From the IMG/VR virus record IMGVR_UViG_3300010356_002077: a stretch of DNA of 64,000 nucleotides; one strand, given 5' to 3'. Made by a program: the position numbers and the translations under genes. The stretch comes from an uncultured virus (IMG/VR IMGVR_UViG_3300010356_002077). Its lineage: Duplodnaviria > Heunggongvirae > Uroviricota > Caudoviricetes. The notes beneath the pieces are model-generated. The model did not search any database. It saw only the letters and a program-made list of their open reading frames with translations, and was not told the origin of the DNA. Position 1 is the first letter of the stretch. Each line of letters starts with the position of its first letter. Of this stretch, positions 627 to 19,068 are shown piece by piece.

Positions 627-2549
627 ATGAAAAGACTGGCCTGCATCGTCCTCGTCCTCCTGTTTTCCCTGGCTGCGGTTGCCGCGGATTACATCACCGT
701 CACCTACAACGTCAAGGACAGCACCGGCGAAGATCTGGCCGCGTGCACGGGGACGGCGCAGGTCATTGTCGAGCCGGGCGATCCCGCCCACTCCCGGCGT
801 CCGCAGGCTGGGACATTCGACGCCACGGCACAGACGCTGACCTGGACGCTCCCTGCGGGGACGACCGTCCGCTTCCGTGTCCCGGAAACGCTGCTCGACG
901 AGACCTTCACCCTGCCCGGCACCAGCTGCACGCTCAACAGCCTGGTCCCGGCCGAGACCGACATCAACACCCCCGCCTGGCTCGCCAACCTCTGGGCCTG
1001 CAACCAGCAGCCCGAGTGCGACATCGTATCCGATTACGATGTAGATGTGGTCGACGGACGATTCTCGGGAACTGTCGCGGCAGCCGGAACGGTCACGGGC
1101 TCGAACCTCTCCGGCTCCAGCTCCGGGACGAACACGGGGGACCAGGACCTATCCGGCCTCCTCCCATATACGGGGGCGACGGGTAATGTTGACTTGGGGA
1201 CGCATAACCTCACCACCACAGGCAAAGGAACATTCGGACAGTTTAAATTGACTGGTGGAATTACAGGATACTTATTGATGTCAGGTGTGGATGGTCTTGC
1301 TCTGTGGTCCTCTCCAAACAGCCACAAACATTCTATTATCCAAAACTATATTGGTGGGGGAAGTGATGTCGGAAGTGTTGAGATTATGACTGATGGGGGT
1401 GCATATTATAGCATCCCGGATGGTTCGATATATCTCGACGGTATATTCCCGTTTTTGTCCCTCACCACAACTCGCGGCATAACCAGTGGAGGGCACGCAG
1501 TTAAATTTTACGATGGTGCCGACACCCACACCTATTATTTTGACCTCCCGCCGTTTACTGATCCTTCCGTTGTTGTTACGTTCCCGCCAGTCAGCGGGTC
1601 GCTATGGGCCTCTGGGAACGATGGCACGGGTTCGGGCTTGGACGCTGACACGCTTGATGGAGACCATGGTTCAGCGTTCCTGAAGGCAGAGGTTGATGGA
1701 GTTATCGGCAACGAAGTGACGGACGCCGCCGATACAACCCTCACCAGAACGGGAAGCGGAACAAGCGGAGACCCGTGGAAGCTGAAACTTGCACTCGGCA
1801 ACGCCAACACTTGGACGGCGAACCAAACAGCACCGTATTTTGTGCAGAGCCTCCGATACTCTGCGGACGACCCCAGGCCGACGGGGTGGCCGCAGACGGC
1901 AAGCAACACGAACATTGACAATGAGTTTAACGGGGAAACGCTGACAGAGTGGGCATGGTACGGCTCTACTCCGGCTTATTTGTTGAGCGGAACGCCAAAC
2001 CAGACGAAGTTTGGAGGCTACATATATTTCAGCAAGGATAGCTCCTCAAACCCAATGAGCGCTTCCTACTATTACAAAACATTGGGCACACCACTCCCGG
2101 CGGCGGCGAGTATGGACACAAACGACAGCCAAACCATTGTGATGAAAACCTGTATGCCAAATTTCGGCTCATACATAGGCTTCGCTCTTCTAGATTCCGC
2201 AGGGACGGGATTTGCCATTTGCCTTTACGGAAACGGAAATGTTTCTTATACCTATAAGGGCGCGATTACCACTTGGGGGGCGTTCCCGTCCACTATTTTG
2301 TCGAATGTGGAGAACTATCCGTATTTGATGATTAAGCGACGAAAGAGCGGGGATGGACATTGTTATATCTCCTATGGCGTTTCGGCTGACGGAGTGACTT
2401 GGAGTGATGTTGGCAACGAAGGCTCCGACACCATAGACAATGCGGTTGCGTATATCGCAGTAACCATATCCTTCAACGCCCGTAATATGCCTGTTCCGGG
2501 GACTGCCGCAGTTGATTTCATTCGTGGCGAAGTTTATGAAGCACCTTGA
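627..2549 (+). CDS. Tail-fibre-like protein with N-terminal signal peptide (copy 1)
   Basis: MKRLACIVLVLLFSLAAVA|AD signal-like N-terminus. Fibre-type motifs SGTNTGDQDLSGL, PYTGATGNVDLG and GSGLDADTLDG. Beta-rich C-terminal domain. Confidence 0.65.
   Translation: MKRLACIVLVLLFSLAAVAADYITVTYNVKDSTGEDLAACTGTAQVIVEPGDPAHSRRPQAGTFDATAQTLTWTLPAGTTVRFRVPETLLDETFTLPGTSCTLNSLVPAETDINTPAWLANLWACNQQPECDIVSDYDVDVVDGRFSGTVAAAGTVTGSNLSGSSSGTNTGDQDLSGLLPYTGATGNVDLGTHNLTTTGKGTFGQFKLTGGITGYLLMSGVDGLALWSSPNSHKHSIIQNYIGGGSDVGSVEIMTDGGAYYSIPDGSIYLDGIFPFLSLTTTRGITSGGHAVKFYDGADTHTYYFDLPPFTDPSVVVTFPPVSGSLWASGNDGTGSGLDADTLDGDHGSAFLKAEVDGVIGNEVTDAADTTLTRTGSGTSGDPWKLKLALGNANTWTANQTAPYFVQSLRYSADDPRPTGWPQTASNTNIDNEFNGETLTEWAWYGSTPAYLLSGTPNQTKFGGYIYFSKDSSSNPMSASYYYKTLGTPLPAAASMDTNDSQTIVMKTCMPNFGSYIGFALLDSAGTGFAICLYGNGNVSYTYKGAITTWGAFPSTILSNVENYPYLMIKRRKSGDGHCYISYGVSADGVTWSDVGNEGSDTIDNAVAYIAVTISFNARNMPVPGTAAVDFIRGEVYEAP
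1008..1797 (+). repeat. ~790-bp direct repeat, copy 1
   Basis: Matches 43654-44443 (offset 42,646). Translations are identical from QPECDIV to WKLKLAL. Confidence 0.95.
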
Positions 2550-2616
2550 TTGGATTCGGGTCAAGTAGGAGGAACGGTAAATGGGGAAGTGGTTGGTCCC
2601 TTGATAGGAGGAAAGA

Positions 2617-2841
2617 ATGGTCGCGGAAACGGTATTAAAAGAGGATTGTAGAGAAACACATCGACAGGTGTCCGTGAGTCTGAAGAGTCTTTTTGAGAAA
2701 GTGGAGGCCATTCAAAAGGACGTTGCCTTCATTCGCGGAAAAAGCAGTTCAAACATTTTCTGGGCGAGTATGATTGGTTCCGGTGTTGTCGCGGTCCTTG
2801 CTACGATAATAATCACGGCAATACAATTGAAAGGAGGTTAA
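2617..2841 (+). CDS. Putative holin / small membrane protein
   Basis: Coiled-coil followed by a C-terminal TM helix, directly upstream of the endolysin. Confidence 0.5.
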   Translation: MVAETVLKEDCRETHRQVSVSLKSLFEKVEAIQKDVAFIRGKSSSNIFWASMIGSGVVAVLATIIITAIQLKGG

Positions 2842-2842
2842 T

Positions 2843-3319
2843 ATGACGCGAATAAGTGACCCCAATTATCTGGTCGCCCCCCTTCGGAGTCTTAACCAGG
2901 AATTTCTTCGTCGGTGCGACCTCCAGATCGGTGAAAACGTGATTCGAAACTTCGAGACTCTCCGAACTCGACTGCGACACGCAACACTCTTTCTCAAGGG
3001 TCGGGCAACCCTGGACGTGGTCAATCAGATAATGACAATCGCCCAGGAGGAACAAATTGCACAAAGTGACAATAACATCGTGACGTGGAGTACGTCGAGT
3101 CCGCATCTTCCCGATATGAATGGATTGTCCCATGCGTTCGACATCGCTGTGTATCGGGACGGGCAACCGACTTGGGACGAGACATCTCTCTCGCTTTATT
3201 TACGAGCCGCGGACATCGGTCGCGAGTTAGGTTTAGAATGTGGTGCGGATTGGCCTCGACCTCGGAGAGACCTACCACACTATCAATTACGAACAAGTGT
3301 TCGAAAGGAGGAACCATGA
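2843..3319 (+). CDS. Endolysin, peptidase M15 family
   Basis: Motifs SxH...AFD and GADW...DLPHYQL. Confidence 0.8.
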   Translation: MTRISDPNYLVAPLRSLNQEFLRRCDLQIGENVIRNFETLRTRLRHATLFLKGRATLDVVNQIMTIAQEEQIAQSDNNIVTWSTSSPHLPDMNGLSHAFDIAVYRDGQPTWDETSLSLYLRAADIGRELGLECGADWPRPRRDLPHYQLRTSVRKEEP

Positions 3320-3843
3320 AACGGATCATTTTAGCTTTTGTTTTGCTTCTCACCCTTCCCGTATTCGCACAGGTTGATGCCTATTCGGGTGTGGGTCGAC
3401 TGTTCACCTCAACCGAGGGAAATGTGATTCGGTACTCAAGCGACTACGAGACCAATTACACGGTCGGGGTTCGATATTACACCGGAGAGAAACTTTCCCT
3501 CAACCTCAACGTTATGCGGGATACCGCGCGAATCGGTGAGTACCTGCTGAAACACAACTACATCGAAAAGGTTCCGACCGTCAAGTACCAGTACACCAAA
3601 GTCCGTCCCTCCATTGAATATTGGTTCGGGGATCTTTACGTTTTCGGTGGACTACCAATATTCTTCTCACCTTCTAAAGGGGTAGAAACCAAGTTCGGAA
3701 TGGAGGTGGGTACCGGAATCAAACACAAACTCTACAAGAAGCTCTTCTGGCAGAGTGAACTTTCGTTCCTTCACGTACAGGACTTTCTCGTTCCAGTTGC
3801 CAACACCGTCAATTGGTCGTTCGCTTTGGGGTACCGTTTCTAG
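3316..3843 (+). CDS. Outer-membrane beta-barrel protein (Lom/Ail-like size)
   Basis: Start revised to ATG 3316 (SD GGAGG). Signal peptide MKRIILAFVLLLTLPVFA, amphipathic strands, C-terminal beta-signal FALGYRF. Confidence 0.75.
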   Translation: MKRIILAFVLLLTLPVFAQVDAYSGVGRLFTSTEGNVIRYSSDYETNYTVGVRYYTGEKLSLNLNVMRDTARIGEYLLKHNYIEKVPTVKYQYTKVRPSIEYWFGDLYVFGGLPIFFSPSKGVETKFGMEVGTGIKHKLYKKLFWQSELSFLHVQDFLVPVANTVNWSFALGYRF

Positions 3844-3852
3844 GAGGACACC

Positions 3853-4500
3853 ATGATCGAGGAAATGCGGCCGGAAGAGATTCGCATCGAGTTAGCCGAC
3901 ATTCTCGGGTACCACAATCCGAGAATTCTCGGACGTATCATACAGTGGTCGACAACTGCATGGCGCGAGCACCCTTCTGTACTATCCCACGTAGGACTCT
4001 TCACGAACGAGTGTAGTCTTCGGAATGCCCACGTTATTGAGAGTCTCGTTCCTTGTGGGGTTCGGTGTCGGCACTTCCACGAGGTCTACGGAGATGGGGA
4101 GAATTGCTACATTTTGAAACCGCTCAACCTCACATTTGACAAGCGGGTCGCAATTACGAATCACGCGTTCCATAGTCTCCACAAACCGTACGGTTACGGA
4201 AAAGCGATCGCGGGAGGTTTGGATGGCATCTTAAGTCGGTTGTTCTACTTGAAACGCGAACCGGTTTTCTTCCGACGACTCTTCATCAACGAAGTTTTCG
4301 AGGATTGCTCCGTCCTTGTTGCAGATTGTTATGGCAAAACGGGTCGGGACTTCGGATTGCGAGACAGTTTCGTCCTCCCGGACGACATTTGGGATTACGG
4401 ACTCACCCATCCGGAACACTACCGTGTAATCAAAGTCATCCCGTCCGGAGCCAATAAGAGACGTACGAGATTCCAAGAGTTCGCGTTTCCCTCTTCATAA
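3853..4500 (+). CDS. Permuted papain-like (NlpC/P60, YiiX/YaeF-like) enzyme
   Basis: His-before-Cys order: SHVGL...VIES...YGY...CSVLV...PDD. Confidence 0.65.
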   Translation: MIEEMRPEEIRIELADILGYHNPRILGRIIQWSTTAWREHPSVLSHVGLFTNECSLRNAHVIESLVPCGVRCRHFHEVYGDGENCYILKPLNLTFDKRVAITNHAFHSLHKPYGYGKAIAGGLDGILSRLFYLKREPVFFRRLFINEVFEDCSVLVADCYGKTGRDFGLRDSFVLPDDIWDYGLTHPEHYRVIKVIPSGANKRRTRFQEFAFPSS

Positions 4501-4516
4501 TAGAACCTCCTTCTCT

Positions 4517-4556
4517 ACGGACTCCGCAACTCACACAGTTGGGGAGTCCGTTTCTT
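4517..4556. terminator. Hairpin between convergent operons
   Basis: ACGGACTCCGCAACT-loop-AGTTGGGGAGTCCGT followed by TTCTT. Confidence 0.6.
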
Positions 4557-4568
4557 GTGTCTTGGGGG

Positions 4569-6839
4569 TTACCGGAGTTTTATCCCGCACCATTGTGGAC
4601 TTCCTCCGTACGAAACTTTTCGGAAACCTCTCTCAACGAGTGCGATGTCAAACAACCGACGTGAGAGAACTCTTTCTCCGGTCTCGGCGCACCAGAAACC
4701 ATAGGAGGCATAAAGATCCTTTCCGTTTGTGCGAGCTTTCGGATCTTGTACTTCACACTGCTCCTCGAGGAACTGTCCAATGACGTCTACCTGCTGTCGG
4801 TACGCTTTTGTCTCTTCCTCGACCTCGGTACGATCGAGTCCGAACTTCCTCCACAACTTGTGACCCTGCACCAACCACCGTAAAATGCCGTCTTTCTCTT
4901 CGAGGAGTTCCGGCAACAAATTCTGGTTCTGTTGCTCCACCGAGAACGAGACGGTAAAGGGAACGAGGCAAACCCTCCGCCAAAAGGCGTCGTCCGCGTA
5001 CCGCGTAAGTGGTTTGTGGTTTGTGACGAGAATGAACTTGAATTGGGGTCGGTACTCAAACGCTTCCTGGTAGAGCTTTCTTGCCGTAATCGTGTCACTT
5101 CCCGTAATCCTTTTTACCATCGCTTCATTCAAAACTCCGCGATTCGATTCGGTTCCGACAACGAGGCGACAACCTACAAGTCTCGCGAGTTCGTGCATCG
5201 ACTCCGAATTGTTGTCCTCCCCGAGAAAGGCTTCCGTGTTAACACTCTGGCAATATTCTCCCAAAATTTGGTGTACGACTTCGAGAAGGGTGGACTTTCC
5301 GTTTGCCCCTCTTCCGTAGAAGATGAAGAAGGTTTGCTCCCCCGTACCTCCACCAATTGCATATCCGAGTAGTCGTTGCACGAAATTGACCATCGCGGGT
5401 CGAACGAAGACCTCATTGAGGAATTTGACCCACTTTGGACACCTTGCATTCGGAAGAAAGTCTACTCGAGTTTGTTTTGTCAGGACGATTTCCGGAGTAT
5501 GCGGAAGGAGCGTACCTGTTGGCAGGTCGATAATCCCGTTTTTCGCATTCAAGTACTCAGGATTCCGATCGAGCATCCCGGGATAAACTTCGACCAGGGG
5601 TTTGACAAGCTCCAACGCACTGTGTAATCTCGCGTACGCGCGGGAGGCGAGGGACCACTTGAGCAACGTTTGTTGTGTTGAGGGATCCTTTTGTGCGAGA
5701 GCTTCCTCGCGTATGACGTCGGGAAGTTTAAGTGCTGCTCCGATCGCGGCCGTTCCCGCGGAGACGTAAACGCCGTTCTTGTACGAGAGAAATCCGAGAC
5801 CGCTGCAGTACCGAAGTGGTTCCGTGGTAATAGTCGCCAACCGTTTCGCGTTCGCGACGTCCGTAGTAGCTTCGAGAACGTCTACCATTTTAACGTGGGA
5901 TTCTTGATCGAGGAACGTCTCCTTCTCGAGATATTCCTGCGCTCCCCGAATCGTTAGGATGGCGTACGAGACACCCTTCTCGCGGGTCTTCGCAGAGATA
6001 CCCCACTGGGTATTACACATTACGGTGAGGAGCTGTCCGGGAGTGTACTTTCGCTTGAGCAACTCTACACACACTCGCCAATCTGCCTTGCTTCGGTCTC
6101 GAAAGTCCCCTTCTACGATAAGGTTTTTCAGTGAACGAGGAAGGGCTTGTAGAAACGCGTCAGGAAGACTTTCCGCCGTAATCTCCCCTTGAGGAGTTTC
6201 GACTTGAGTACTTTCCTGTCGGGGAAAGGCATCTAAACTGTGTCGGGTCTGAAACTGGGGTTTGAGTAGGAAGTAGCACCGTTTCGGGGGTAACACCTTC
6301 CAGTTTAGCGTTCCAGGAACTCGAAGAACACGAGCGAGGTCCGAACACGAATCTGCACTGAGTGCTTTCTCGAGTCCCTTTAATCGCATTTTCATCTCTT
6401 CGAGAGTCTCGGAGAAATGAGTGAGACACCAATACGCGTGAACTCCGTTACCACTACATACGATCGCACTGGGAGACGGAACGAACTTTTCTACGCGACT
6501 CACAAGGATGTCCAGGGGAAGGTCGTCTTTGGGGTCGATGTCTACCCACAAGACACTACTTCCAAGAGTCTGTTCCGCAAGACCCCGTCCTTGTTGCGGG
6601 ACCTCACGAAGTAGGGTCGTTCGACAAAAGAGGTCTTTTCCAAGAGTAGCTTCTTCAATCGCCTTTCGTTTCGCGACCTCGGCATCTCGAACGCGGAAGA
6701 AGAAATGTTGCCACGACGCAGCACTTTTTGAGGAGAGTGCAAGAACGGCATCCTGAGGTGCTTTGGAGGTAAGTAAGTCAATGAATAATTTGATTTCTTC
6801 CGAGTTGACCGTTGCGTAACTATTCTTCGATGAACGCAT
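4569..6839 (-). CDS. Primase-helicase: RepB-type primase plus P4/D5-family SF3 helicase
   Basis: WVDID, SGNGVHAYW and DLARVLRVPGTLN primase motifs; GRGANGKST Walker A; ITGSDTITARKLY. Confidence 0.9.
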   Translation of the reverse strand: MRSSKNSYATVNSEEIKLFIDLLTSKAPQDAVLALSSKSAASWQHFFFRVRDAEVAKRKAIEEATLGKDLFCRTTLLREVPQQGRGLAEQTLGSSVLWVDIDPKDDLPLDILVSRVEKFVPSPSAIVCSGNGVHAYWCLTHFSETLEEMKMRLKGLEKALSADSCSDLARVLRVPGTLNWKVLPPKRCYFLLKPQFQTRHSLDAFPRQESTQVETPQGEITAESLPDAFLQALPRSLKNLIVEGDFRDRSKADWRVCVELLKRKYTPGQLLTVMCNTQWGISAKTREKGVSYAILTIRGAQEYLEKETFLDQESHVKMVDVLEATTDVANAKRLATITTEPLRYCSGLGFLSYKNGVYVSAGTAAIGAALKLPDVIREEALAQKDPSTQQTLLKWSLASRAYARLHSALELVKPLVEVYPGMLDRNPEYLNAKNGIIDLPTGTLLPHTPEIVLTKQTRVDFLPNARCPKWVKFLNEVFVRPAMVNFVQRLLGYAIGGGTGEQTFFIFYGRGANGKSTLLEVVHQILGEYCQSVNTEAFLGEDNNSESMHELARLVGCRLVVGTESNRGVLNEAMVKRITGSDTITARKLYQEAFEYRPQFKFILVTNHKPLTRYADDAFWRRVCLVPFTVSFSVEQQNQNLLPELLEEKDGILRWLVQGHKLWRKFGLDRTEVEEETKAYRQQVDVIGQFLEEQCEVQDPKARTNGKDLYASYGFWCAETGERVLSRRLFDIALVERGFRKVSYGGSPQWCGIKLR

Positions 6840-9234
6840 CTAGCGACCCCCAAGACTTGCCAACCTCCGCGGACACCTTCCAAGAGAAAGGAGACTCACT
6901 ACGTCGCTTCACGAATGTCTGTATGCACGTCGCTATCTTTTGTACTTCCTTTTTGGTAATTCCATCCGGTACCTCTAAAAGCAAACTGTCGTGAACGAGA
7001 TTCACAACTCCGAGGTTTCCGGACATCTTTGAGAGAAGTTGTTTCGTTAGGTGAATTCCCGAGAGTAGTGTAAGATCGGACGCGGTAGATTGTATTGCAA
7101 AGTTTCGAGCTTCTCCACCGAGAGAAGAGAGTGTGAAGTTCGAGACTACCGGGAAGTGTCTCCGACGTCCGAAAGGTGTTTCTAACCACCCCTGCGTACT
7201 CGCGAGGATTGGTTGTTCTTTGAGGTACTTCCAAGCCTGAGGAAAGAGCTTTCCCCAATCTTCTATCAACCGCTGAGAAAATTGGATCGACACGGGTTTC
7301 TTCAACTCTCGAGTAAGCTGGCTCGCGATTGACGGGGCCTGCCGGTTGTAGAGAATCCCGAAGGTCACGGTTTTGGTTATTTCGCGTTGCTCTTTTGTGT
7401 AGTGGTTTCCGAAGATTTGGCGAGACACTTTGTCGTGCAAATCCTCTCCGTGTACAAAGAGTTGAGTGAGATTCTTGTCCCTACTGAGGAGGGCAAGAAC
7501 TCGAAGTTCCGTTTGTGAGTAGTCCATTTCGAGTAACAAGCGTCCCGGAGGAGAACTGAAGATATCCTTCACGACTTTTTCTCGCGGGACCGTTTGTACC
7601 GGAGGGTCCACCGCTACCAATCTTCCCGTTACCGTTCGGTGGAGCAAGAACTGTGGGTACACTCGGTGGGTCTCGGGATCGAGCAACGTGCGCATTTTCG
7701 TGACGTAGCTGGACATTATCTTCTTCGCTTTGCGTTGCTCGAGTAACATCCCGAGAAAGGTTTGGGACCGTTCTCCGATCGCACGTTCTTGGAGATCCTT
7801 CAACACCTCTTCACCGGTTTCTCGTTTCCGGGTGAGTTGCGGTAAGTGGAGAATGTCATAAAGGATGTGGGCGACTTGTGCGGGGGAGTTCGGATTGAAC
7901 GTCTCGAGACTAAACGCTTTTTGCATCTCGCGAGTTAACTCTTTCTCGCGTACTCCGATGGTCGCCTCGAGATTGTCCAAGTGTGCGGTGTCGATGTAGA
8001 TTCCTCTCCGACCGACGTCCGTCAAGAATTTACTCGCCGGAAGAAGAATCTCGTTGTACGCGGACCACTGTCCTCGAGATGCCTTTGCGAGGGGAAGGAG
8101 TACCCGAAAGAGGTTTCCAGTGGTTACTACGTCGCACGCAAGATATTTCTGGAGAAGTTCTCGCGGTACCAACGAGTACGAATCCGATTTGGGGTGCTTT
8201 AACGTCGCGTGAATGTCCTTTTCGTAGTTTCTCATTCCAAGAAACGTCGCTCCGAGGGATTTCAGATCGTGTGGAGGATGTTCCCAAAATGCATAGTGTA
8301 GGAGCATCGTATCCTGATCTACCCGAGCAGGAATTCCTGCGGCACCGAGAAAGCGAATGTCAAACTGACCGTTGTGCCAGATCCACTGTCGTTGCTTCGC
8401 GGTAAAGAACCGCTTGAGAAGTTTGTTGACGGTCTTGTCGTAAACCAATTCTTCCGGGAAGACGATTGGGGGAAACGGAACGTCGAGAGAGTAGATACCT
8501 AAACAGAGAATTCGATCCGTTTCACTCGAAAAACCACTGGTCTCGATATCCGCGGCGAGTAGTTCCGAGGTTTGGAGAGCTTTCAGTGCGAGACGGACGG
8601 CTTTACTATTTGAGATAACTCGGACGTCTGTGGTCGCGTAAGCTTCCACATCCGTAAAAAGTTGTTCGATCGGTTCTCGCTGAAGAAACCTCCTTACGAG
8701 TGCCGTACGCATTCGAAAGAGCAACCAACTCTCGGGAGAACGGAGTAGTTGTGCCGGGTGGGAGCACGGAACGAGTTTGAAGTGCCTTTCCTGCACCGAA
8801 AAATCTTCTATCGAGTGCAAGTCCGTAGAACTCTTTCCGGTTAGTGCTCTCGTTGCTACTCCTCCAACACACAAAATCAATTCGAGGTTTGGCATCGTAC
8901 GAATTTCGTTAAAAACGTTTTGTACACAGTGGGTCGCGACTTGTTCGAGCGCGTCGTCATTCTTCTCATTCGCCACTCCCAGATAACAGCAAACCGTATT
9001 TACGATCCGAGTATGTTTTTCCAGTTCGAATCCCGGAAATGCGTGTCGTAAGATTCGACCGGACTGACCAACGAACGGAGTGTGCTCTACCATTTCTTGC
9101 TTTCCGGGACTCTCTCCAACGATGAGTACTCGAGCATCGAGGTTACCCACTGCCGGAACCATCGGACTTCGATAAAACGGACATCCCGTACAAGTATCGG
9201 GTTTCCGAAGTCCCGAGGTCATTTTCCTCTCCAC
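6820..9234 (-). CDS. Family A DNA polymerase with N-terminal family-4 UDG-like domain and 3'-5' exonuclease
   Basis: UDG: CTGC, GESPG, PFVG, HPA. Exonuclease: DIETSG, HNGQFD, YLACD. Polymerase: DYSQTELR, KTVTFGILY, VHDS. Confidence 0.92.
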   Translation of the reverse strand: MERKMTSGLRKPDTCTGCPFYRSPMVPAVGNLDARVLIVGESPGKQEMVEHTPFVGQSGRILRHAFPGFELEKHTRIVNTVCCYLGVANEKNDDALEQVATHCVQNVFNEIRTMPNLELILCVGGVATRALTGKSSTDLHSIEDFSVQERHFKLVPCSHPAQLLRSPESWLLFRMRTALVRRFLQREPIEQLFTDVEAYATTDVRVISNSKAVRLALKALQTSELLAADIETSGFSSETDRILCLGIYSLDVPFPPIVFPEELVYDKTVNKLLKRFFTAKQRQWIWHNGQFDIRFLGAAGIPARVDQDTMLLHYAFWEHPPHDLKSLGATFLGMRNYEKDIHATLKHPKSDSYSLVPRELLQKYLACDVVTTGNLFRVLLPLAKASRGQWSAYNEILLPASKFLTDVGRRGIYIDTAHLDNLEATIGVREKELTREMQKAFSLETFNPNSPAQVAHILYDILHLPQLTRKRETGEEVLKDLQERAIGERSQTFLGMLLEQRKAKKIMSSYVTKMRTLLDPETHRVYPQFLLHRTVTGRLVAVDPPVQTVPREKVVKDIFSSPPGRLLLEMDYSQTELRVLALLSRDKNLTQLFVHGEDLHDKVSRQIFGNHYTKEQREITKTVTFGILYNRQAPSIASQLTRELKKPVSIQFSQRLIEDWGKLFPQAWKYLKEQPILASTQGWLETPFGRRRHFPVVSNFTLSSLGGEARNFAIQSTASDLTLLSGIHLTKQLLSKMSGNLGVVNLVHDSLLLEVPDGITKKEVQKIATCIQTFVKRRSESPFSWKVSAEVGKSWGSLDAFIEE

Positions 9235-9800
9235 ATACTCAACACCTCCATCTTCGCCCCACTACTCGTCCGAAAGATCCCCGAGACGTACGAAGTAATT
9301 GTGGAGGCACTACTCGATCGAGCCCCTCTACAACTCGCACAGGTATGTACCGCTTCCATTACCACGAAAACTCCCTGAGGTTGTAGAGCCTTCGAAATGG
9401 CCATTCCGATATCTCGAGTTAGGTACTCTTGAAGAGTAGGTGCTTGGTGGCTCGCAACCGTAACGAGTCGACTCAGTTTCGAGAGTCCCACCAACCGTTT
9501 GTTCGGAAGGTATGCGATTGCCGCGTGTCCGTAGAACGGAAAGAAGTGGTGGGCACACAAGGCGGAAAACTGGATGTCCCTTACCATGACAAATTCATCC
9601 AAGGGGGTGTCGCTTGTGGAAGTGAATTGTTTCCCTAACACTTCGACCAGCTGTGTATTGCGGTGCTCGCAGAACTCTGCCCATGCTCGGTAGATTCGTC
9701 CGGGAGTTTCTACTAGGGACTCGTCCGTGAGGTCAAGTCCGAGTTCCGTAAGAACGTCTTGAAGTTTTTCGATTGCTAGGGTCTTTGAACTTTTTTGCAT
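9219..9800 (-). CDS. folE: GTP cyclohydrolase I
   Basis: ETPGR, CAHHFFPF, GLSKL, LQE and HTC..RG motifs. Start revised to ATG 9800. Confidence 0.9.
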   Translation of the reverse strand: MQKSSKTLAIEKLQDVLTELGLDLTDESLVETPGRIYRAWAEFCEHRNTQLVEVLGKQFTSTSDTPLDEFVMVRDIQFSALCAHHFFPFYGHAAIAYLPNKRLVGLSKLSRLVTVASHQAPTLQEYLTRDIGMAISKALQPQGVFVVMEAVHTCASCRGARSSSASTITSYVSGIFRTSSGAKMEVLSMWRGK

Positions 9801-10528
9801 TCCTGTCTCCCTCGTAAGGCTTCTGGCCAGAGAAGCTTGTGAAGTTGTGGTAGAACTCGCACTTTGAATTGGTGAAGTACGGGTTCGGGATGTGTGAGGA
9901 CTTTGTCCACGAGTACGCGGTAGTCCTCCAACAAGGTTTCGGGTGTTCGCGTAACCGGTTGGAGAACTTTGAGGCACGACGGTCGGACCTTTTCGAATAC
10001 CTCGATCGCAAATTGAAGATCGATATCGTCCGCAACGACAATCTTGACGCAGTCGAACAGGGATCCGATTCCTCCAAACCGAAACGGATCGAGGTCTAAC
10101 CACTCTTGTAGGTACCCGAGACTCTGGTTGGCGGAGGGAGGTTTTGGACTGAGGGTAATCGAACCACTCAACGGTTCAAAGGCCTTCACCCATTCCGGTA
10201 CCGGGAGACTCGCTTGCGTTTCGAGGTGGATGTGCCAGTACCTAATTAACTCTGGAATAAGGGAGGTCATGTGATCCTTCCAAAGCACCGGATCACCTCC
10301 GGTTAGTACTAACAAGTCCGAGTAGGGTAGGTTCCTCAATTCTCGAACAATCTCTTCCACGGTGAGGAACCGGTAGTCTTGTCCTTCGACTGCGTACTTC
10401 GTGTCGCACCAAGTGCACGCATGGGGACAACCCCAAGTACGAAGGAAGAGAGCGGGAGCCCCAGCTAGGGCTCCCTCTCCTTGAATCGTCGGACCAAAGA
10501 TTTCCGAGACTGCAATTCTCGGTTCCAT
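9776..10528 (-). CDS. queE: 7-carboxy-7-deazaguanine synthase (radical SAM)
   Basis: EIFGPTIQGEG, CPHACTWCDT (CxxxCxxC), LTGGDP, SPK, PQLHK. Confidence 0.9.
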   Translation of the reverse strand: MEPRIAVSEIFGPTIQGEGALAGAPALFLRTWGCPHACTWCDTKYAVEGQDYRFLTVEEIVRELRNLPYSDLLVLTGGDPVLWKDHMTSLIPELIRYWHIHLETQASLPVPEWVKAFEPLSGSITLSPKPPSANQSLGYLQEWLDLDPFRFGGIGSLFDCVKIVVADDIDLQFAIEVFEKVRPSCLKVLQPVTRTPETLLEDYRVLVDKVLTHPEPVLHQFKVRVLPQLHKLLWPEALRGRQECKKVQRP

Positions 10529-10530
10529 GG

Positions 10531-11073
10531 TTAACTCCCAAACGCGTCCCCGGTGGCAGCGGGTTTGTACGCGACGATCTTAGCCGACAGACCTTCTACT
10601 CCGTCCGTCCTCTTTTCGATCCGCGTAGCCACACGACAAGTCCGACCAACGAGTTCGGCGACGTCCCGACTGGGTACGAAGTTCTTGAGTTCGGATTCTT
10701 CCATTCCGAGAGCTACGACGATCGCTTTGATGCGCGAGATCCCGACCGGATTGTTGAGGACGGTGTAGTCCCACAACTTCGAGTTCGCGTTCTTAGGTCC
10801 GTCAATTCGGAAAACCCACTCGATCATCGAGGACCCTTTAGAGGAGACTTTGCAGTTCGCCTCCTCCAACGAAACGTCGTACGTTCCCGGTTGTGGGGGA
10901 GTGAAATCCCCACCGGTCGCATCGGTGAGATCGATCGCGGAATCGAAAATGTTCTCGGATTGTTCCTCGGGTGACTCTCCCATGAAGTCATCCACGGGTT
11001 TCGGAGTAGGAGTTTTGCGTCCTCCCTTTTTGGTTACTGTCTTGCCCATTTTGTTACCATCCTTTCTGCTCAT
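10531..11073 (-). CDS. ssDNA-binding protein (DUF669-like)
   Basis: PPQPGTY...SSKGSSMI pattern, adjacent to the Sak4-like ATPase. Confidence 0.65.
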   Translation of the reverse strand: MSRKDGNKMGKTVTKKGGRKTPTPKPVDDFMGESPEEQSENIFDSAIDLTDATGGDFTPPQPGTYDVSLEEANCKVSSKGSSMIEWVFRIDGPKNANSKLWDYTVLNNPVGISRIKAIVVALGMEESELKNFVPSRDVAELVGRTCRVATRIEKRTDGVEGLSAKIVAYKPAATGDAFGS

Positions 11074-11085
11074 TTGAGCTCTACG

Positions 11086-11946
11086 CTACTTCTTCTTAGA
11101 AAGTTGAAGGAACCGCTGCATTGTCGGATTGTCCTCGATGTACGGGACGGTGTTGCTCTTGTGGTAGCGGTCCTTTGCCGTAAACTGTGATGTCGGAGAG
11201 AGAAAGAGTGTCCGACGCGGCAACTCTTTCATCGTCGCAGGAGTCGTACAATGTAAATACCCGACAACGTCTACGATTCCGAGAATCTCCAAGGACGATT
11301 TGCCCTGAAGATTCGGGGTGTAGATAACCCGTTGAGTTTCGTCCTGTCGGTCATTCGCGGAACACACGAAGATGACATTGAATGGAAGATCTCTGAACGC
11401 ACGGAGAAGCAAACCGAATTGGTCCCCGATCTTTCCCCAGAGGGGTAACGTTCTCTCAGGAAGATTCATGGTGAAATCCGGAGAGGACGGATCCACACCG
11501 GTGATGTGGTAGATTTGTTGTCTCTGGATCTCTGAAAGGGAATCCAGTACGATCGTCCGGTAAATCGTTGGAGTGGTTTTCTTCGTCCGGGTCACCTTTT
11601 GTTCCAAAGCGAGTAACCCTGCTGTGTCGTTGCGATCGCGTAACTCTCCGTGCTTCTTGAGGAACGCGTACACGGTGGTGAGTTCTTGGGTGTTCCCGAC
11701 ATGTACGACCGAAACGTTGCTAAATCCGTCAAGTGTCATTTGTCCACTTTCCGCGTCGAGAAAGAGGACATTCTGCATGGCTTTTACTTCACTAGCGGTG
11801 GCCGCGAGGTGAGTTTTTCCTACTCCGTAACGACCGTACACTAACATCTTAAGCCACGCCTCCTTACTCGGTGCTACAATTTCGAACGGCAGGTCATTAG
11901 TGGCTCTCCGTTCGGGTGGGACGGGAGGTACTCCCGGTTTAACCAT
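11086..11946 (-). CDS. Sak4-like AAA ATPase (ssDNA annealing)
   Basis: LVYGRYGVGKT, LDAESG, IVLDSLSE, DVVGYL, AKDR. Confidence 0.8.
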   Translation of the reverse strand: MVKPGVPPVPPERRATNDLPFEIVAPSKEAWLKMLVYGRYGVGKTHLAATASEVKAMQNVLFLDAESGQMTLDGFSNVSVVHVGNTQELTTVYAFLKKHGELRDRNDTAGLLALEQKVTRTKKTTPTIYRTIVLDSLSEIQRQQIYHITGVDPSSPDFTMNLPERTLPLWGKIGDQFGLLLRAFRDLPFNVIFVCSANDRQDETQRVIYTPNLQGKSSLEILGIVDVVGYLHCTTPATMKELPRRTLFLSPTSQFTAKDRYHKSNTVPYIEDNPTMQRFLQLSKKK

Positions 11947-15214: not shown

Positions 15215-16700
15215 AACCTACCTCCTTTTTGAGTTCATTCACAATATCGCTCCACTGCTTCTTCAACTGTACCAACTCGAGGATGCGTTCATCCAATTTA
15301 CCCCGGTGAACAAAGTACCGCACCAAAACCGGTTTTGGAGAAACCTTTCCGGAGGGTCGAACAACCCTCGCGAGTGCTTGTGCGACCGTATTGTAGTTCC
15401 AATCCAACTGCCACACTAGAACCAACTCGGCACCGGCAAGAGAAAAACCTTCCGCCATTCCGATTGAACACAACGCGACTCGGACCTCGGGATCCTCGCG
15501 AAACTGCTTGGAGAACTTCGTCACTTCCTTCGCGGAGGATTGTCCCGTAATAACGACGTGCGGAATGGGTTCGGAATCTCCGAACATCAAACGGCGAGAG
15601 AGATCTTGCAACGGTTGGAGGAACGGAGAAAACACCACCACCTTGCACTGTGTACTGTGTTCTCGAACTTGTTCTGCAATACAATCTATCGGTTCGGTCA
15701 ACCCAACACAGGTAGGGAGGATCGCTCGTGGGCACATTAGGAAGATCCGGAGTTTGGTGAGCATCGCAACTACGTTTGGAAGTGCGAGAGTCTCCTGGTC
15801 AAGGTCCAGTTTCAGTTCCACTTGTAATTTCTTGTAGACCTTCTCAAGTTCGGGTGCGAGTTCGAGATGAACGATTTGAGTTTCCACGGTAGGTAGCTCC
15901 TTTGCAATCTCCGTTCGTCTCCGCGACAACATGTACTGACTCAACCACTCGGTAAACCGTTTGTAGTGGTTCGAAGTCGGGTCTGGTGGAGCAATTTCGG
16001 TACCGAATGGAGTAATGACGATTCCGAAGAACTCCGCCACGCGCTTCCAGAAACTTCTGTTTCCGCGAGGATCGAGAATCTGAACCAAAGGAATGACGTG
16101 ATGGGGATGTCCGACAATTGGAGTACCCGAAAGCATAAACACAAACGGGAGTCCGTTGGATCTCGGAGTAGCGAGTGCTTTGACGATTCGGTACGTCTGG
16201 GTATTCCGACCGCGAACTCGATGTGCCTCGTCCAAAACGATCGCATCAAAGTAAACCTTCTCAAGTTCCTTTAGAAGGGGGTGGTAGGTCGCAAGTAAAA
16301 TGAATCCCGAATGCTTTCGATCTTGTACCCGGGCAACAATTTTGTCTCGTTTCTTTCGCTCGGTCGAGAACGAAATTACCTCAAGAGGAATACCCCATTT
16401 CTTTATCTCGTCCTCCCAAACTCCGATAGCACTTTTTGGTACCACCGCTAGGACTCGAGATAGTTTCAATAGTCGAATTGCCTCGAGAGTTTGGACCGTC
16501 TTTCCGAGACCCATTTCATCGGCAAGAAACGCTCGGTGGTGCTTGATCAAAAACGACACCCCTTCAACCTGGTAGGGTCGTAACTTCTTGTTGACATATC
16601 GTAGGGGACAACCCGGAGTGTGAATTGCCCACTGATAAGAAGTTTGAAATTCCTTTCCACATTCCGGACACGTTAACATTTCATTCCTCGGGTGTCGCAA
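15201..16700 (-). CDS. SNF2-family helicase with N-terminal Zn finger
   Basis: LRPYQ, LADEMGLGKT, LDEAH, LSGTP, QALARVVR. Confidence 0.88.
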   Translation of the reverse strand: MRHPRNEMLTCPECGKEFQTSYQWAIHTPGCPLRYVNKKLRPYQVEGVSFLIKHHRAFLADEMGLGKTVQTLEAIRLLKLSRVLAVVPKSAIGVWEDEIKKWGIPLEVISFSTERKKRDKIVARVQDRKHSGFILLATYHPLLKELEKVYFDAIVLDEAHRVRGRNTQTYRIVKALATPRSNGLPFVFMLSGTPIVGHPHHVIPLVQILDPRGNRSFWKRVAEFFGIVITPFGTEIAPPDPTSNHYKRFTEWLSQYMLSRRRTEIAKELPTVETQIVHLELAPELEKVYKKLQVELKLDLDQETLALPNVVAMLTKLRIFLMCPRAILPTCVGLTEPIDCIAEQVREHSTQCKVVVFSPFLQPLQDLSRRLMFGDSEPIPHVVITGQSSAKEVTKFSKQFREDPEVRVALCSIGMAEGFSLAGAELVLVWQLDWNYNTVAQALARVVRPSGKVSPKPVLVRYFVHRGKLDERILELVQLKKQWSDIVNELKKEVGCVRI

Positions 16701-17139
16701 AAGGAAGAGTAGGTTGATCGTCCGAAACCGATTTTCCGGGGGACTCTAGAACGTCGGGGTACCGAATCGGTTGGTACGTCGCACTCGTCTTCGCACCTTC
16801 CTTAACCGTTACCCGAGAAATCCGAACTCTCGGAGTGTGTCCCTGGACAACCAACTTCTTTCGGATTCCCTCGAAAAAGTAATTCGCGAGATTTTCCGCG
16901 GTCGGATTGAACGGGAGCAACCGATTGAGGTCGTTGTGGTCGAGAACGAGAATCTCTTTTGTCAGTTCTTTGAACTCGTGATAGTCCAACACCATCCCGG
17001 CGTCCGTTAACTCGTGCGCCGCGAGTTCAACGTCAATTTCGTAGTTGTGTCCGTGGTAGTACGTACACGGGTGGTTGGGGGAAAGTAACCTTAATCTGTG
17101 AGCACAACTTATCTCGAACTTCTTCGTTATGTAGTACAT
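16681..17139 (-). CDS. queD: 6-carboxytetrahydropterin synthase
   Basis: AHRL, CxxxHGHNY, LDH, PTAENLA. Confidence 0.9.
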   Translation of the reverse strand: MYYITKKFEISCAHRLRLLSPNHPCTYYHGHNYEIDVELAAHELTDAGMVLDYHEFKELTKEILVLDHNDLNRLLPFNPTAENLANYFFEGIRKKLVVQGHTPRVRISRVTVKEGAKTSATYQPIRYPDVLESPGKSVSDDQPTLPFATPEE

Positions 17140-17341: not shown

Positions 17342-17815
17342 CTACCTCCACCGATAACTTTGTACGTACGTTCCGACACTTCCGATTCGATTGTCCTGTT
17401 CGATCTCTTGAAGTTGAACTTCGATTCCGGTAGGACGCCTTTTCTTGGAAGCACCGCAACCTCGACAGGTCAAATCTCGATCCAAATTTGTTCTACCGCA
17501 GTACTCACACCGGGTTCCGTCGTCAATCGCCTTGGTTATCCTCCCGGTAATGTCCCGGGCGAGGCACTTAGGACACTCCGCACCTTTAGGATAGCTCATT
17601 CCGTGTTCCGGGCACGTTCGCCAAGATAACATTGTTTTCTCCACAATCATTTCGTTTGCGTGTACTACCGTACAACCTAATTCGTTTTCTCGTTTCAACT
17701 GCTTCATTTCTTCCATTCTAGAACCCGAAACAACTTCTCCGGAAAGGAGTTTCACCACGAATATCAACCCAACCGCTACCGCACATAGAAGGAGGATGTC
17801 AACGACGTCGGACAT
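17342..17815 (-). CDS. Membrane-anchored Zn-ribbon protein
   Basis: Start revised to ATG 17815. N-terminal TM helix; CPEH, CPKC, CEYC and CRGC pairs. Confidence 0.5.
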   Translation of the reverse strand: MSDVVDILLLCAVAVGLIFVVKLLSGEVVSGSRMEEMKQLKRENELGCTVVHANEMIVEKTMLSWRTCPEHGMSYPKGAECPKCLARDITGRITKAIDDGTRCEYCGRTNLDRDLTCRGCGASKKRRPTGIEVQLQEIEQDNRIGSVGTYVQSYRWR

Positions 17816-18413
17816 TTTCCCTCCGATTTTGTGACGGGGTGCCGGTCCCCGTCGGGTAAGAGGTAGGCGCCCTACTGAGGAGAGCAGGAGCGATTGCGCC
17901 GGCATCGCAATTCTTGGGTACTCCGTACGGGTTGAAAATAAGTACGTCAACCGTCATTACACCCACACGAAGCATCCCTAATTTGTTTGCTAAAACTTTA
18001 CTCAAATCGAATTCTCGTCCCGAAATGTAGGGTCCTCGGTCTGTTATCCGTCCGAGAGCCCACGAATCTGCGTCACTCCAACATAAAACTACCGTACCAA
18101 AAGGTAGGGTTTTGTGAGCAATATACGGAGCGGTCTGTCGGAAGGGTTTCCCGTTTGCCATTGTCCGCCCCTCGAAAAAGTCAGCGTAGTAAGAACAAGT
18201 TGCTCTGCGAACCGCGGTACAATTGTCTATCCACTCTAGTTGAGTCCGAACTTCCTCCATCAAGTGATTGACCGTCCGAAGTGTGGTATTGTACTCTTGC
18301 TGTGCCTCCCTTATCTCACAAAGTATCCGTTCAGTTTGAAATGGTAGCAACAAACCAACCACGAGCACTAGAAAGTAGAGTACCATAACCCCGCAGAGCA
18401 ACTTGAATTTCAT
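17799..18413 (-). CDS. RlpA-like (DPBB) lytic transglycosylase with N-terminal TM
   Basis: SYY..GRTMANG, AHKTLPFGT, ITDRGPY..GREFDLS. Confidence 0.85.
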   Translation of the reverse strand: MKFKLLCGVMVLYFLVLVVGLLLPFQTERILCEIREAQQEYNTTLRTVNHLMEEVRTQLEWIDNCTAVRRATCSYYADFFEGRTMANGKPFRQTAPYIAHKTLPFGTVVLCWSDADSWALGRITDRGPYISGREFDLSKVLANKLGMLRVGVMTVDVLIFNPYGVPKNCDAGAIAPALLSRAPTSYPTGTGTPSQNRRENVRRR

Positions 18414-18416
18414 CTT

Positions 18417-19067
18417 CTACCCCTCGTACTCTGTTTTGTCCTGCAGTCCCGCGAGAGCGATCGCCTTCTTACGGTTTCGACAGGATTCACAGACTCCACA
18501 ATGGAGTTTTTCGCTTCGGTAACACGACCAGGTGTTGAAGATGATGTCCCCAACTAACGCGTGGGCGCGCTTAAGATTCTCCGCTTTGGAGAATCCACAA
18601 CGTGCCGGACTGTCGATCGTCAGCGGATTGTCGGGATGTCCAGTGTTGAGGGTTTTCTGGAGTTCCGCGACAAATCCGTTTCGACAATCCGGGTAACCCG
18701 CGGCATCGTCCGCATGAGCACCGAAGATGATCTTTCCGGCACCGATCGACTTTGCGTACGCTGCGGCGATTGTGAGCATTACCATATTCCGGAGAGGGAC
18801 CACAACCGTCGGGACGTAATTGTCCTCGATGTCGACCGCTTCATCCGTTAACTGCGATCCCGGCCAAAGTTCTTGCATGAACGACATGTCGATGATTTGA
18901 ACGTCCTGCACGAAAGGAAATCCGGCAACGACGTTTTCGATGACACTGAGTTCTTTGACTCCTTTCTGCCCGTAGTCAAAAGCGAGAACGTGACATTCGT
19001 CGAGATCGTGTTGCGCGAGGAAACACACACTATCCATTCCCCCGCTTACTACCGCAACCACTTTCAT
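18417..19067 (-). CDS. queC: 7-cyano-7-deazaguanine synthase
   Basis: SGGMDS, FDYGQ, VPLRN, YPDCR, SCY, CGVCESC. Start revised to ATG 19067. Confidence 0.92.
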   Translation of the reverse strand: MKVVAVVSGGMDSVCFLAQHDLDECHVLAFDYGQKGVKELSVIENVVAGFPFVQDVQIIDMSFMQELWPGSQLTDEAVDIEDNYVPTVVVPLRNMVMLTIAAAYAKSIGAGKIIFGAHADDAAGYPDCRNGFVAELQKTLNTGHPDNPLTIDSPARCGFSKAENLKRAHALVGDIIFNTWSCYRSEKLHCGVCESCRNRKKAIALAGLQDKTEYEG

Positions 19068-19068
19068 T

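Follow-up and report, generated by a model that had tools for sequence, protein, structure and literature searches.

A β-barrel gene followed by a gene for a C92-type permuted papain-like enzyme in the lysis cassettes of two tailed phages: a candidate outer-membrane module

The 64,000-nucleotide (nt) stretch of DNA analyzed here, a record of an uncultured tailed virus (IMG/VR IMGVR_UViG_3300010356_002077; Caudoviricetes) that we refer to as the window, contains two phage lysis cassettes, one in a phage designated phage B and the other in a Mu-like phage. Both comprise genes for an endolysin, a small membrane protein, an outer-membrane β-barrel and a C92-type enzyme, a permuted papain-like protein of the YaeF/YiiX type. 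All eight of these genes had been named in a preliminary description of the window and lie where it had placed them (Table 1). That description lacked two elements of the Mu-like cassette, a hairpin between the barrel and C92 genes and the gene for a 125-amino acid (aa) protein.

The four genes of the phage B cassette are separated by 1, -4 and 9 nt, and each has a GGAGG-type ribosome site; the start of the barrel gene overlaps the stop of the endolysin gene by 4 nt. Against the Pfam family Peptidase_M15_4 the endolysin reaches an E value of 0.0042, which is below the cut-off. The 74-aa protein, which matches no family in Pfam, PHROG or NCBIfam, is by its position a candidate holin or holin-associated protein. 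Downstream of the C92 gene, positions 4501-4568 fold with -29.3 kcal/mol (z -4.06), a stability equaled by none of 200 shuffles, and the hairpin within them is likely a two-way terminator that closes the cassette. In the Mu-like phage, Mor is followed by the GH108 endolysin, a holin candidate, the barrel, a 63-nt spacer, the C92 enzyme, the 125-aa protein, gp26-like and gp27-like genes and the large terminase. The holin candidate, an 81-aa membrane protein, is so designated tentatively and has no family match in Pfam, PHROG or NCBIfam. The 125-aa protein carries no basic residue before its transmembrane (TM) segment and four just after it, and the positive-inside rule therefore predicts an N-out/C-in topology.

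Table 1. Coordinates of the lysis cassettes and associated features (window positions unless a contig is named).
Feature	Coordinates	Strand	Evidence or remarks
Phage B: 74-aa protein, charged/coiled-coil N-terminal part and one C-terminal TM (residues 46-74)	2617-2841	+	ORF, Shine-Dalgarno, TM scan
Phage B: M15-type endolysin	2843-3319	+	phrog_465 E 1.4e-15; no signal or TM segment
Phage B: outer-membrane β-barrel, 175 aa, signal peptide, 8 strands, C-terminal ...GYRF	3316-3843	+	PF13505 33 bits
Phage B: C92 (YaeF/YiiX-type permuted papain-like) enzyme, 215 aa, no signal peptide	3853-4500	+	PF05708 18.3 bits
Phage B: hairpin between convergent C92 gene and primase gene (4569-6839, minus strand)	4517-4551	.	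folding
Mu-like phage: Mor	47429-47860		directly before endolysin; phrog_836
Mu-like phage: endolysin, GH108 + PG_binding_3	47904-48413	+	Pfam 1.6e-21 and 2.4e-14; phrog_315 3.4e-35; no signal or TM
Mu-like phage: 81-aa membrane protein, hydrophobic over residues 15-70, charged C-terminus	48410-48655	+	overlaps both neighbors by 4 nt
Mu-like phage: outer-membrane β-barrel, 181 aa, homologue of 3316-3843	48652-49197	+	PF13505 25.8 bits, below cut-off
Mu-like phage: terminator-like hairpin, GC-rich 11-bp stem, GAAA loop, U-run	49220-49250	+	12 nt before C92 start
Mu-like phage: C92-type enzyme, 193 aa, no signal peptide	49261-49842	+	family alignment; no Pfam match
Mu-like phage: 125-aa protein, TM at residues 4-38, then coiled coil	49852-50229	+	TM scan, sequence
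Fibre-like gene, 640 aa	627-2549		signal-peptide-like N-terminus; contains identical 790-bp core
Fibre-like gene, 617 aa	43270-45123		signal-peptide-like N-terminus; contains identical 790-bp core
Lipoprotein of lineage L023, 86 aa, textbook lipobox leader, Pro/Glu-rich mature part	L023 8595-8855	-	just upstream of barrel

The two barrels of the window are homologous. The preliminary description had asserted this from shared sequence motifs, which are indeed present, and BLASTP aligns the proteins with 56 of 185 residues identical (30%; E 3e-21). The gathering cut-off of the Pfam family OMP_b-brl (PF13505; 28.7 bits) is passed by the phage B barrel and by that of a related virus, L013 (36.3 bits), but not by the Mu-like barrel. 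A profile of nine members retrieved 30 matches among 1.84 billion cluster representatives, 29 of them at E <= 1e-10, and the search had no tail into the large generic OMP_b-brl family; the family is therefore sharply bounded. Across 28 aligned members, G35 and D69 do not vary; G25, G27, H80, G128 and the terminal F (93%) are conserved in at least 90%, and W76, F82, Y93, H153, F157, P160, A162 and N163 in at least 70%. Neither barrel matches Ail_Lom in Pfam, where a scan at E <= 0.1 gave OMP_b-brl only, and NCBIfam gave no match.

An AlphaFold2 (AF2) model of the phage B barrel (mean predicted local distance difference test, pLDDT, 78.2; predicted template-modeling score, pTM, 0.70) can be read as an eight-stranded barrel, with a signal peptide, eight antiparallel strands and a C-terminal aromatic residue. 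Seven of the strands are long, and the position of the fifth is split into short segments (residues 107-112 and 115-117). The second loop spans 24 residues and includes a short helix, whereas the periplasmic turns are 2-4 residues long. The closest folds are those of OprF-N (Z 17.0), OmpW (16.4), NspA (16.4) and OmpA (15.7), followed by weaker matches to PagL (2erv; Z 14.4), PagP (3gp6; 11.6) and OmpX and Ail (about 11.5-12). Since small barrels of every kind are matched, the fold gives no function. In the standard topology of small barrels, the chain ends and the short turns face the periplasm. The model accordingly places the most conserved polar residues at a predicted external rim formed by loops 2 and 4, a placement that rests on strand order rather than on measured distances.

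The C92 proteins of the two phages have diverged much further. The preliminary description had called both of them permuted NlpC/P60 enzymes; distant homology and the permuted motifs bear this out, whereas BLASTP gives no alignment between the two and neither reaches a Pfam cut-off. When the two families are aligned with hhalign (probability 75%, E 2.4e-5, 129 columns), the His, Glu, Tyr-Gly and Cys motifs fall in register, and the hidden Markov model (HMM) of the Mu-type family matches B-type open reading frames (ORFs) at 4e-6 to 5e-5. These profile comparisons indicate that the two proteins are distant homologues. Three residues are invariant in each family, His46, Glu63 and Cys152 in that of phage B and His45, Glu57 and Cys139 in the Mu-type family. 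In both, the catalytic His and then the polar residue precede the Cys, the order expected after circular permutation. PHROG family phrog_1128 is matched by the phage B protein and by relatives of both types (Mu-type in L001 and L013, B-type in L023); the Mu-like window protein matches no PHROG and no Pfam family. The gathering cut-off of Peptidase_C92 (PF05708) is 27 bits, well above the score of the phage B protein, but relatives pass it: the L009 protein scores 31.9 bits and P0015-P0017 carry a precomputed PF05708 assignment. The window proteins are thus divergent members of the clade, although not by Pfam's own threshold.

Structural comparison points in the same direction. Foldseek searches with an AF2 model of the phage B C92 protein (pLDDT 70, with three low-confidence stretches) returned two clear solved matches, 3kw0 from Bacillus cereus (E 3.4e-5; TM-score 0.51-0.58) and YiiX (2if6; E 8.3e-4; TM-score 0.44-0.51), and the next followed only at E >= 0.2. 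The Mu-type profile also finds YiiX among PDB sequences (2if6, E 0.036), and its match to the NCBIfam family YaeF (E 0.0053) lies far below the cut-off. The NlpC/P60 superfamily is divided between canonical wall-cutting enzymes and permuted families, the YaeF/YiiX-like as well as the LRAT-like ones, which have a hydrophobic lipid pocket (described in PMC12994826). The same source describes Tox-Act1, a permuted effector of a type VI secretion system, as a phospholipase that acts in the periplasm, converts phosphatidylglycerol and phosphatidylethanolamine to lysolipids and disrupts membranes. YiiX was co-crystallized with a fatty acid, and its Staphylococcus aureus relative LnsA participates in the N-acylation of lipoproteins (as given in PMC7387801). 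Characterized relatives in the YaeF/YiiX clade transfer fatty-acyl groups or cleave them. Signal peptides and TM segments are missing from both window proteins. For the Mu-type enzyme, the nearest ESM-Atlas clusters are mostly viral and unnamed, and 27 of the 30 nearest share no common Pfam family. Judged by these matches, the window C92 proteins look like members of a widespread, uncharacterized phage branch of the permuted clade.

Homologues of the barrel were found in ten lineages: phage B, the Mu-like phage, L001 (equivalent to L005), L004 (equivalent to L003), L007, L011, L013, L021/L022, L023 and L024. L004 and L007 come from metagenomes, L011 and L013 from IMG/VR, and L001 is recorded as a contig of an Acidobacteria metagenome-assembled genome (MAG). 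A set of 401 genomes from the phylum of this MAG, 4 of them with a match, supplied L023, L024 and L021/L022, the last being prophages that are 96-99% identical to each other. Pattern scans of IMG/VR with the barrel, first as a single protein and then as an alignment, returned no relative; L011 and L013 surfaced through C92 queries only. A tblastn search of 50,697 GenBank phage records with the Mu-like barrel and both C92 proteins gave no match. The host phylum of the phages that carry the pair is probably Acidobacteriota, an assignment that is indirect for the two window phages.

Phage genes adjoin the barrel gene in all ten lineages, and the C92 gene is the very next gene in eight of the nine with visible downstream DNA (the L007 contig ends after the barrel and was left out of this count). 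The linkage that the preliminary description had noticed in two cassettes is therefore a conserved one. The barrel is accompanied by C92 enzymes of either subtype, and barrel identities do not correlate with C92 identities (Spearman 0.11, p 0.5, for 36 pairs from nine loci, among which L021 and L022 are near-identical). L011 illustrates this: its barrel is 55% identical to that of phage B, but its C92 protein is of the Mu type and 62% identical to that of the Mu-like phage. Partners have thus been exchanged while the arrangement was kept, which argues for selection for having both proteins and against a tight co-evolving complex. The reshuffling of subtypes also means that descent alone does not explain the linkage.

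An endolysin gene lies within 2.2 kb of the barrel in eight of the ten lineages. The endolysins represent six catalytic families: M15 (phage B and L021/L022), GH108 (Mu-like and L004), SLT (L001), GH24 (L007), glucosaminidase (L013) and CHAP (L023). The L024 record starts inside the barrel gene. In relatives of the Mu-like phage the endolysin is swapped (GH108 versus M15) while the holin, the barrel, the C92 enzyme and the membrane-tethered protein stay; the L022 homologue of the 125-aa protein occupies the equivalent place (31% identity, E 1e-14) and matches phrog_462. L004 encodes a 77-aa protein with the same architecture as the 74-aa protein of phage B and no detectable sequence similarity to it; unlike the latter, it weakly matches phrog_1193 'hemolysin'. 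In L021/L022 (L022 7871-8683), P0023 and P0024, which represent two divergent lineages, a holin-like stretch, made up of two hydrophobic segments with a basic tail, shares the reading frame of the barrel gene and continues, with no intervening stop, into the Met and signal peptide that belong to the barrel itself. Such a frame could represent a holin-barrel fusion or contain an internal start. Fibre-like genes directly precede the cassette in phage B, L007 and L013, and L001 and L007 encode, close to the lysin, proteins of 111 and 112 aa, respectively, that combine a TM segment with a coiled coil.

How much DNA could be searched for spanins depends on the make-up of the window, which is a composite of two phage genomes, as matches to contigs carrying each phage alone reveal. 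Positions 1-1839 and 43635-64000 match L002, which contains the Mu-like phage alone, with 99.6-99.9% identity, and positions 989-11840 and 37962-44485 match L006 (42,797 bp), which contains phage B alone, with 99.9%. The window thus runs from the early region of the Mu-like phage (MuB, phrog_296) through the whole genome of phage B (about 42.6 kb; 989-44485) into the remainder of the Mu-like phage with Gam, GemA, Mor, lysis genes, terminase, portal, and head and tail genes. A 790-bp stretch is common to both phages as an exact match (1008-1797 = 43654-44443). It forms the identical core of two fibre-like genes that diverge at both ends around it, and the join of the two phages runs through this core. 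The composite is either an assembly path through the repeat, that is, a chimera, or a true co-integrate. Phage B is complete in the window under either origin, and its whole genome is therefore open to a spanin search. The identical core points to recent exchange between the two phages, which consequently probably meet in one host. They had been described as unrelated, and their genomes are indeed distinct; the 790-bp stretch and a pair of RlpA-like genes are nevertheless shared. The RlpA-like proteins (17799-18413 on the minus strand and 45688-46086 on the plus strand; 38% identity, E 3e-17) contain a double-psi β-barrel domain of the lytic transglycosylase type and an N-terminal signal or anchor. 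They are encoded in the early regions, outside the lysis cassettes, and match phrog_7930 'lipoprotein precursor' although they lack a lipobox.

Neither a lipobox scan nor PHROG matches revealed a canonical spanin, be it in the complete genome of phage B or in the part of the Mu-like phage that the window shows, in agreement with the preliminary description, which had seen none in either cassette. The lipobox scan covered every start codon in all six frames of the window, with a lipobox required after a charged, hydrophobic leader. It returned only two implausible ORFs, which lie inside the terminase and tape-measure genes; the same script detects a clear small lipoprotein in L023, which indicates that the scan is able to see one. 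None of the 79 window ORFs scanned (12 + 67) matched a spanin PHROG. An inner-membrane spanin, with an N-in TM segment and a periplasmic coiled coil, was likewise not found in either cassette: that of phage B encodes only a protein with a C-terminal TM segment, and the sole N-terminal-TM coiled-coil protein, the 125-aa protein of the Mu-like phage, has a predicted topology opposite to that of such a spanin. Across all lineages, the only match to a spanin family was a weak one between the 112-aa protein of L007 and phrog_739 'Rz-like spanin' (E 0.0054). Searches of G002 and G403 for the families Rz (PF03245) and DUF2730 gave sub-threshold matches elsewhere in the MAG. The 86-aa L023 ORF is the only credible small lipoprotein in the ten barrel lineages and could be o-spanin-like or an exclusion lipoprotein. 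Taken together, these scans suggest that a spanin recognizable by lipobox or family profile is absent, although a diverged one may escape such tests.

A stable hairpin separates the barrel and C92 genes in five of the eight paired lineages, with a clear U-run in three. It is strongest in the Mu-like phage (z -4.0), where an 11-bp stem is followed by a U-run and the fold of 49198-49262 (-26 kcal/mol) is as stable in 0 of 200 shuffles; a consensus terminator scan did not list this hairpin, which folding confirmed. Those of L011 (z -2.0; 12-bp stem and U6), L023 (z -2.1; U-rich tail), L013 (z -2.9) and L024 (z -1.8) are less pronounced. The L022 hairpin is not significant, and the corresponding spacers are as short as 9 nt in phage B and 3 nt in L001. 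Between the U-run and the start of the C92 gene, the Mu-like phage and L011 have only 12 nt, too short for a promoter, which implies that the C92 gene is read through the hairpin. Where the barrel gene starts within the preceding gene, no promoter upstream of it is possible, and a scan for sigma-70 promoters gave no excess over shuffled sequences. The hairpin may be read as an attenuator inside an operon that yields much barrel and little enzyme, and equally as a terminator of the type that marks morons.

What we observe is gene content, homology and folds, together with a linkage that is conserved, dense packing among lysis genes and a lack of recognizable spanins. The timing, location, substrate and role in lysis of the barrel and the C92 enzyme are what we infer, and we consider it possible, with somewhat less than even confidence, that the two form a late, lipid-directed accessory module that breaches the outer membrane. 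According to this proposal, uncultivated tailed phages carry a two-gene envelope module in the late (lysis) operon. The barrel would be exported by Sec and inserted into the outer membrane by the BAM machinery of the host late in infection, while the signal-less Cys-His enzyme would wait in the cytoplasm at a level that the hairpin before its gene probably holds lower in most lineages. A cytoplasmic enzyme can reach the periplasm and outer membrane only after the holin opens the inner membrane. Once released, it would attack acyl linkages of outer-membrane lipids or lipoproteins and so weaken the last layer of the envelope after the endolysin has cut the wall, a task performed elsewhere by spanins. 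The barrel might contribute a docking site, a route to the lipids or its own conserved Asp/His site.

It is tempting to go further and to regard the pair as a third, enzyme-based class of outer-membrane disruption after spanins and disruptin, used by phages of Acidobacteriota, although we find this extension doubtful. The barrel would then either be catalytic itself, through its external Asp/His site, or expose outer-membrane lipids to a C92 acyl-hydrolase released by the holin. Acidobacteriota have been reported to make membrane-spanning lipids. If such lipids are present in the envelope, we speculate that they could make membrane fusion of the spanin type unworkable.

Several observations weigh against a role of the pair in breaching the outer membrane. 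Conserved residues of the barrel (D69, W76, H80, F82, Y93, H153, F157, P160 and N163) lie in predicted external loops or at strand ends, and periplasmic turns of only 2-4 residues offer little docking surface for an enzyme released into the periplasm. If the cytoplasmic enzyme were an unspecific phospholipase, the inner membrane would be damaged ahead of holin triggering. The intergenic hairpins described above separate the two genes in most paired lineages, and the association with lysis genes is not universal: the L011 pair is flanked by a Mu gp36-like gene and the tail sheath gene, with no lysin among six ORFs scanned; the L004 barrel has no C92 gene and is followed by an Acb2/Tad1-like gene and an integrase; and the L023 pair lies beside an integrase, with the small lipoprotein just upstream of the barrel. 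L008, L009, L010 and L015 have C92-type genes but no barrel, and together with the mostly viral nearest Atlas clusters this suggests that the enzyme may have a role of its own.

Some of these features could be accommodated by surface remodeling or exclusion during the lytic cycle, an explanation that we judge fairly unlikely. The barrel would mask or alter the receptor or lipopolysaccharide and protect against superinfection or against loss of progeny on the cell or its debris, and the cytoplasmic task of the C92 enzyme would be to provide an acyl group or to trim one. A passive barrel would not normally have its conserved residues clustered on the predicted external face, and this cluster would suit such a function, as would the fibre-like genes directly before the cassette in three lineages, the identical 790-bp fibre-like stretch of the window phages, the Acb2/Tad1-like (counter-defence) gene next to the L004 barrel and the added lipoprotein in L023. 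The C92 match to phrog_1128, a family labelled enoyl-CoA hydratase-like, spans about 20-148 of its 381 positions and hints at acyl-thioester chemistry. Remodeling leaves unexplained, however, why the barrel gene is coupled to lysis genes, overlapping or fused with those for the endolysin or holin, and why its neighbor is a lysin rather than a fibre gene in eight of ten lineages; no known exclusion family was matched.

The preliminary description had itself proposed a Lom-like conversion protein as the alternative. For phage B this possibility is weakened: neither an integrase nor a repressor was found among the ORFs scanned, the start of the barrel gene overlaps a stop and Ail_Lom is not matched. 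Moron-like features nevertheless exist. Terminator-like hairpins after the barrel gene are a moron hallmark, the L004 and L023 loci lie at prophage ends beside an integrase, the L011 pair lies between head and tail genes, the eight-stranded fold also matches Ail and OmpX, and C92-type proteins are common in phages that lack the barrel. These features raise the question of whether the two are accessory genes that share no joint role, the barrel being a Lom/Ail/OmpX-like moron and the C92 protein a second wall hydrolase or an unrelated phage enzyme. Besides the apparent lack of lysogeny genes in phage B, the 4-nt overlaps upstream of the barrel gene and the 12 nt between U-run and C92 start leave no promoter room for independent morons, the linkage survives reshuffling of subtypes in eight of nine lineages, and PMC12994826 describes the targets of the permuted NlpC/P60 clade as lipids, not the wall, all of which makes this explanation distinctly improbable to us. 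We give least credence, and very little, to the notion of a new two-part spanin in which the barrel supplies the outer-membrane half and one of the small TM-plus-coiled-coil proteins of the cassettes the inner-membrane half. Such proteins do occur near the lysin in L001 and L007 (the latter with the weak phrog_739 match) and after the C92 gene in Mu-like phages, and nine of ten lineages lack a lipoprotein partner; yet the positive charges of the 125-aa protein follow its TM segment, which predicts the N-out/C-in topology of Mu gp25, phage B and L004 encode only proteins with a C-terminal TM segment, the coiled-coil parts are short, and a barrel with turns of 2-4 residues has no periplasmic domain.

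Other genes in the neighborhood of the cassettes and elsewhere in phage B deserve mention in their own right. Large proteins are encoded just upstream of the lysis genes in L023 (11109-16793, minus strand; 1894 aa, with a GGDEF domain at E 1e-11) and in L001 (1272-5036; 1254 aa, with an LPD38 domain). In L007, a Cys...His-Asn stretch that by eye resembles a Hint/intein-type module is present in the fibre-like protein (3-1823) encoded upstream of the cassette. In L004, the Acb2/Tad1-hairpin-domain protein (E 1.3e-22; counter-defence) and the integrase that follows it are encoded at 2752-2970 and 3638-4771 (minus strand), respectively. We considered a 151-aa L004 membrane protein with a Cys-Cys-x-x-His-Asp motif as phospholipase-A2-like and dropped it, as it matches nothing in Pfam, PDB sequences or NCBIfam; its one match in PHROG is weak (phrog_6098, a family of unknown function; E 0.0036). 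Phage B contains a divergent-promoter- or origin-like region (24773-25476 and 26135-26631) that separates its leftward replication genes from its rightward packaging genes and includes three sets of repeats: ten palindromic-looking copies of 33 nt, five tandem units of 29 nt and three units of 125 nt. Genes for GTP cyclohydrolase I, a QueD-like protein and a QueC-like protein (9219-10103, 16681-17139 and 18417-19262, all on the minus strand) suggest that phage B DNA may carry a 7-deazaguanine modification. Phage B also encodes its own Pol I, primase-helicase, exonuclease and Sak4-like proteins.

In the titles and abstract openings of the literature that we searched, no β-barrel protein or C92 enzyme was described as part of a lysis cassette, and we did not find a characterized member of either the barrel family or the window C92 branch. 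About 15% of phages are reported to lack a spanin gene (bioRxiv 10.1101/515445), and how spanin-less phages of diderm bacteria cross the outer membrane is an open question, for which the pair is a clonable two-gene candidate. Its conservation extends over ten lineages whose endolysins are of six kinds, and its carriers are probably phages of Acidobacteriota, a group that is almost unstudied. If the pair does breach the outer membrane, the known repertoire of lysis proteins would be extended by an enzyme-plus-barrel solution, a first function would be assigned to a widespread C92 branch in phages and a new tool for permeabilizing Gram-negative envelopes would become available. If it does not, what is left would be a surface module, presumably expressed late and conserved to an unusual degree, with a predicted conserved external site on its barrel.

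Compared with known lysis systems, the proposed module resembles spanins in position and LysB in logic. Two-component spanins such as lambda Rz/Rz1 and Mu gp23/gp23.1 occupy the same slot after the endolysin and perform the task proposed here; in Mu their genes sit between lys and gp25-gp27 (PMC9239132). They differ in composition, as the module consists of a β-barrel and a soluble enzyme rather than a lipobox lipoprotein and an N-in coiled-coil protein, and its proposed action is enzymatic rather than membrane fusion. Another Mu protein, gp25, is termed a releasin and belongs to the DUF2730 proteins, which are N-out/C-in and encoded within five genes after the endolysin (PMC9239132). The 125-aa protein resembles it in its N-terminal TM segment, its predicted topology and its position just before gp26-like and gp27-like genes. 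Neither it nor its L022 homologue matches DUF2730 (PF10805) up to E 10, however, and the endolysin here has no signal-anchor-release (SAR) domain. Disruptin, gp28 of phage phiKT, also disrupts the outer membrane of the host of a spanin-less phage by other means than a spanin (bioRxiv 10.1101/515445), but it is a small cationic peptide, whereas the present pair comprises a mature barrel of 156 aa and an enzyme of about 200 aa.

Among phage-borne outer-membrane proteins, lambda Lom, its relatives Ail and OmpX, and lambda Bor are comparably small, and the Ail/OmpX fold is matched (Z about 11.5-12). Bor adjoins the lambda lysis genes. The window barrels differ from the Lom group in lacking an Ail_Lom match, in their better fit to OprF-N, OmpW, NspA and OmpA (Z 15-17), in their coupling to lysis genes and in their presence in a phage with no detected lysogeny genes; their external loops are, moreover, conserved rather than variable. 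The lipid A enzymes PagL and PagP are likewise eight-stranded, with conserved polar residues on the outer-leaflet side, a likeness at the level of the fold only. There is no sequence similarity, and the conserved set here (D69, H80, H153 and N163) differs from the His-Ser-type motifs of PagL and PagP, which were not seen.

The C92 proteins share the circularly permuted His...Cys core of lipid enzymes such as the type VI secretion effectors Tox-Act1 and TseH, as well as LnsA, LRAT/PLAAT, YiiX and 3kw0, with 3kw0 and YiiX as the best solved folds and PLAAT3 as a weaker match. Tox-Act1 lyses cells from the periplasm (PMC12994826). Unlike these enzymes, the phage proteins form subfamilies of their own and carry neither a secretion signal nor a toxin-delivery domain. 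The mycolyl-arabinogalactan esterase LysB of mycobacteriophages offers a parallel to the proposed function, being a lipid-cleaving enzyme of the lysis cassette that handles the outer lipid layer instead of a spanin (as described in PMC5707550). It acts in mycobacterial hosts, has no barrel partner and differs from the C92 proteins in fold and catalytic type. LysB is a serine esterase. Colicin lysis proteins, which act through the phospholipase OMPLA, follow a logic analogous to that of the proposed module, as LysB does. By these analogies, the barrel and its C92 partner would be a lysis-cassette accessory that is enzyme-based like LysB.

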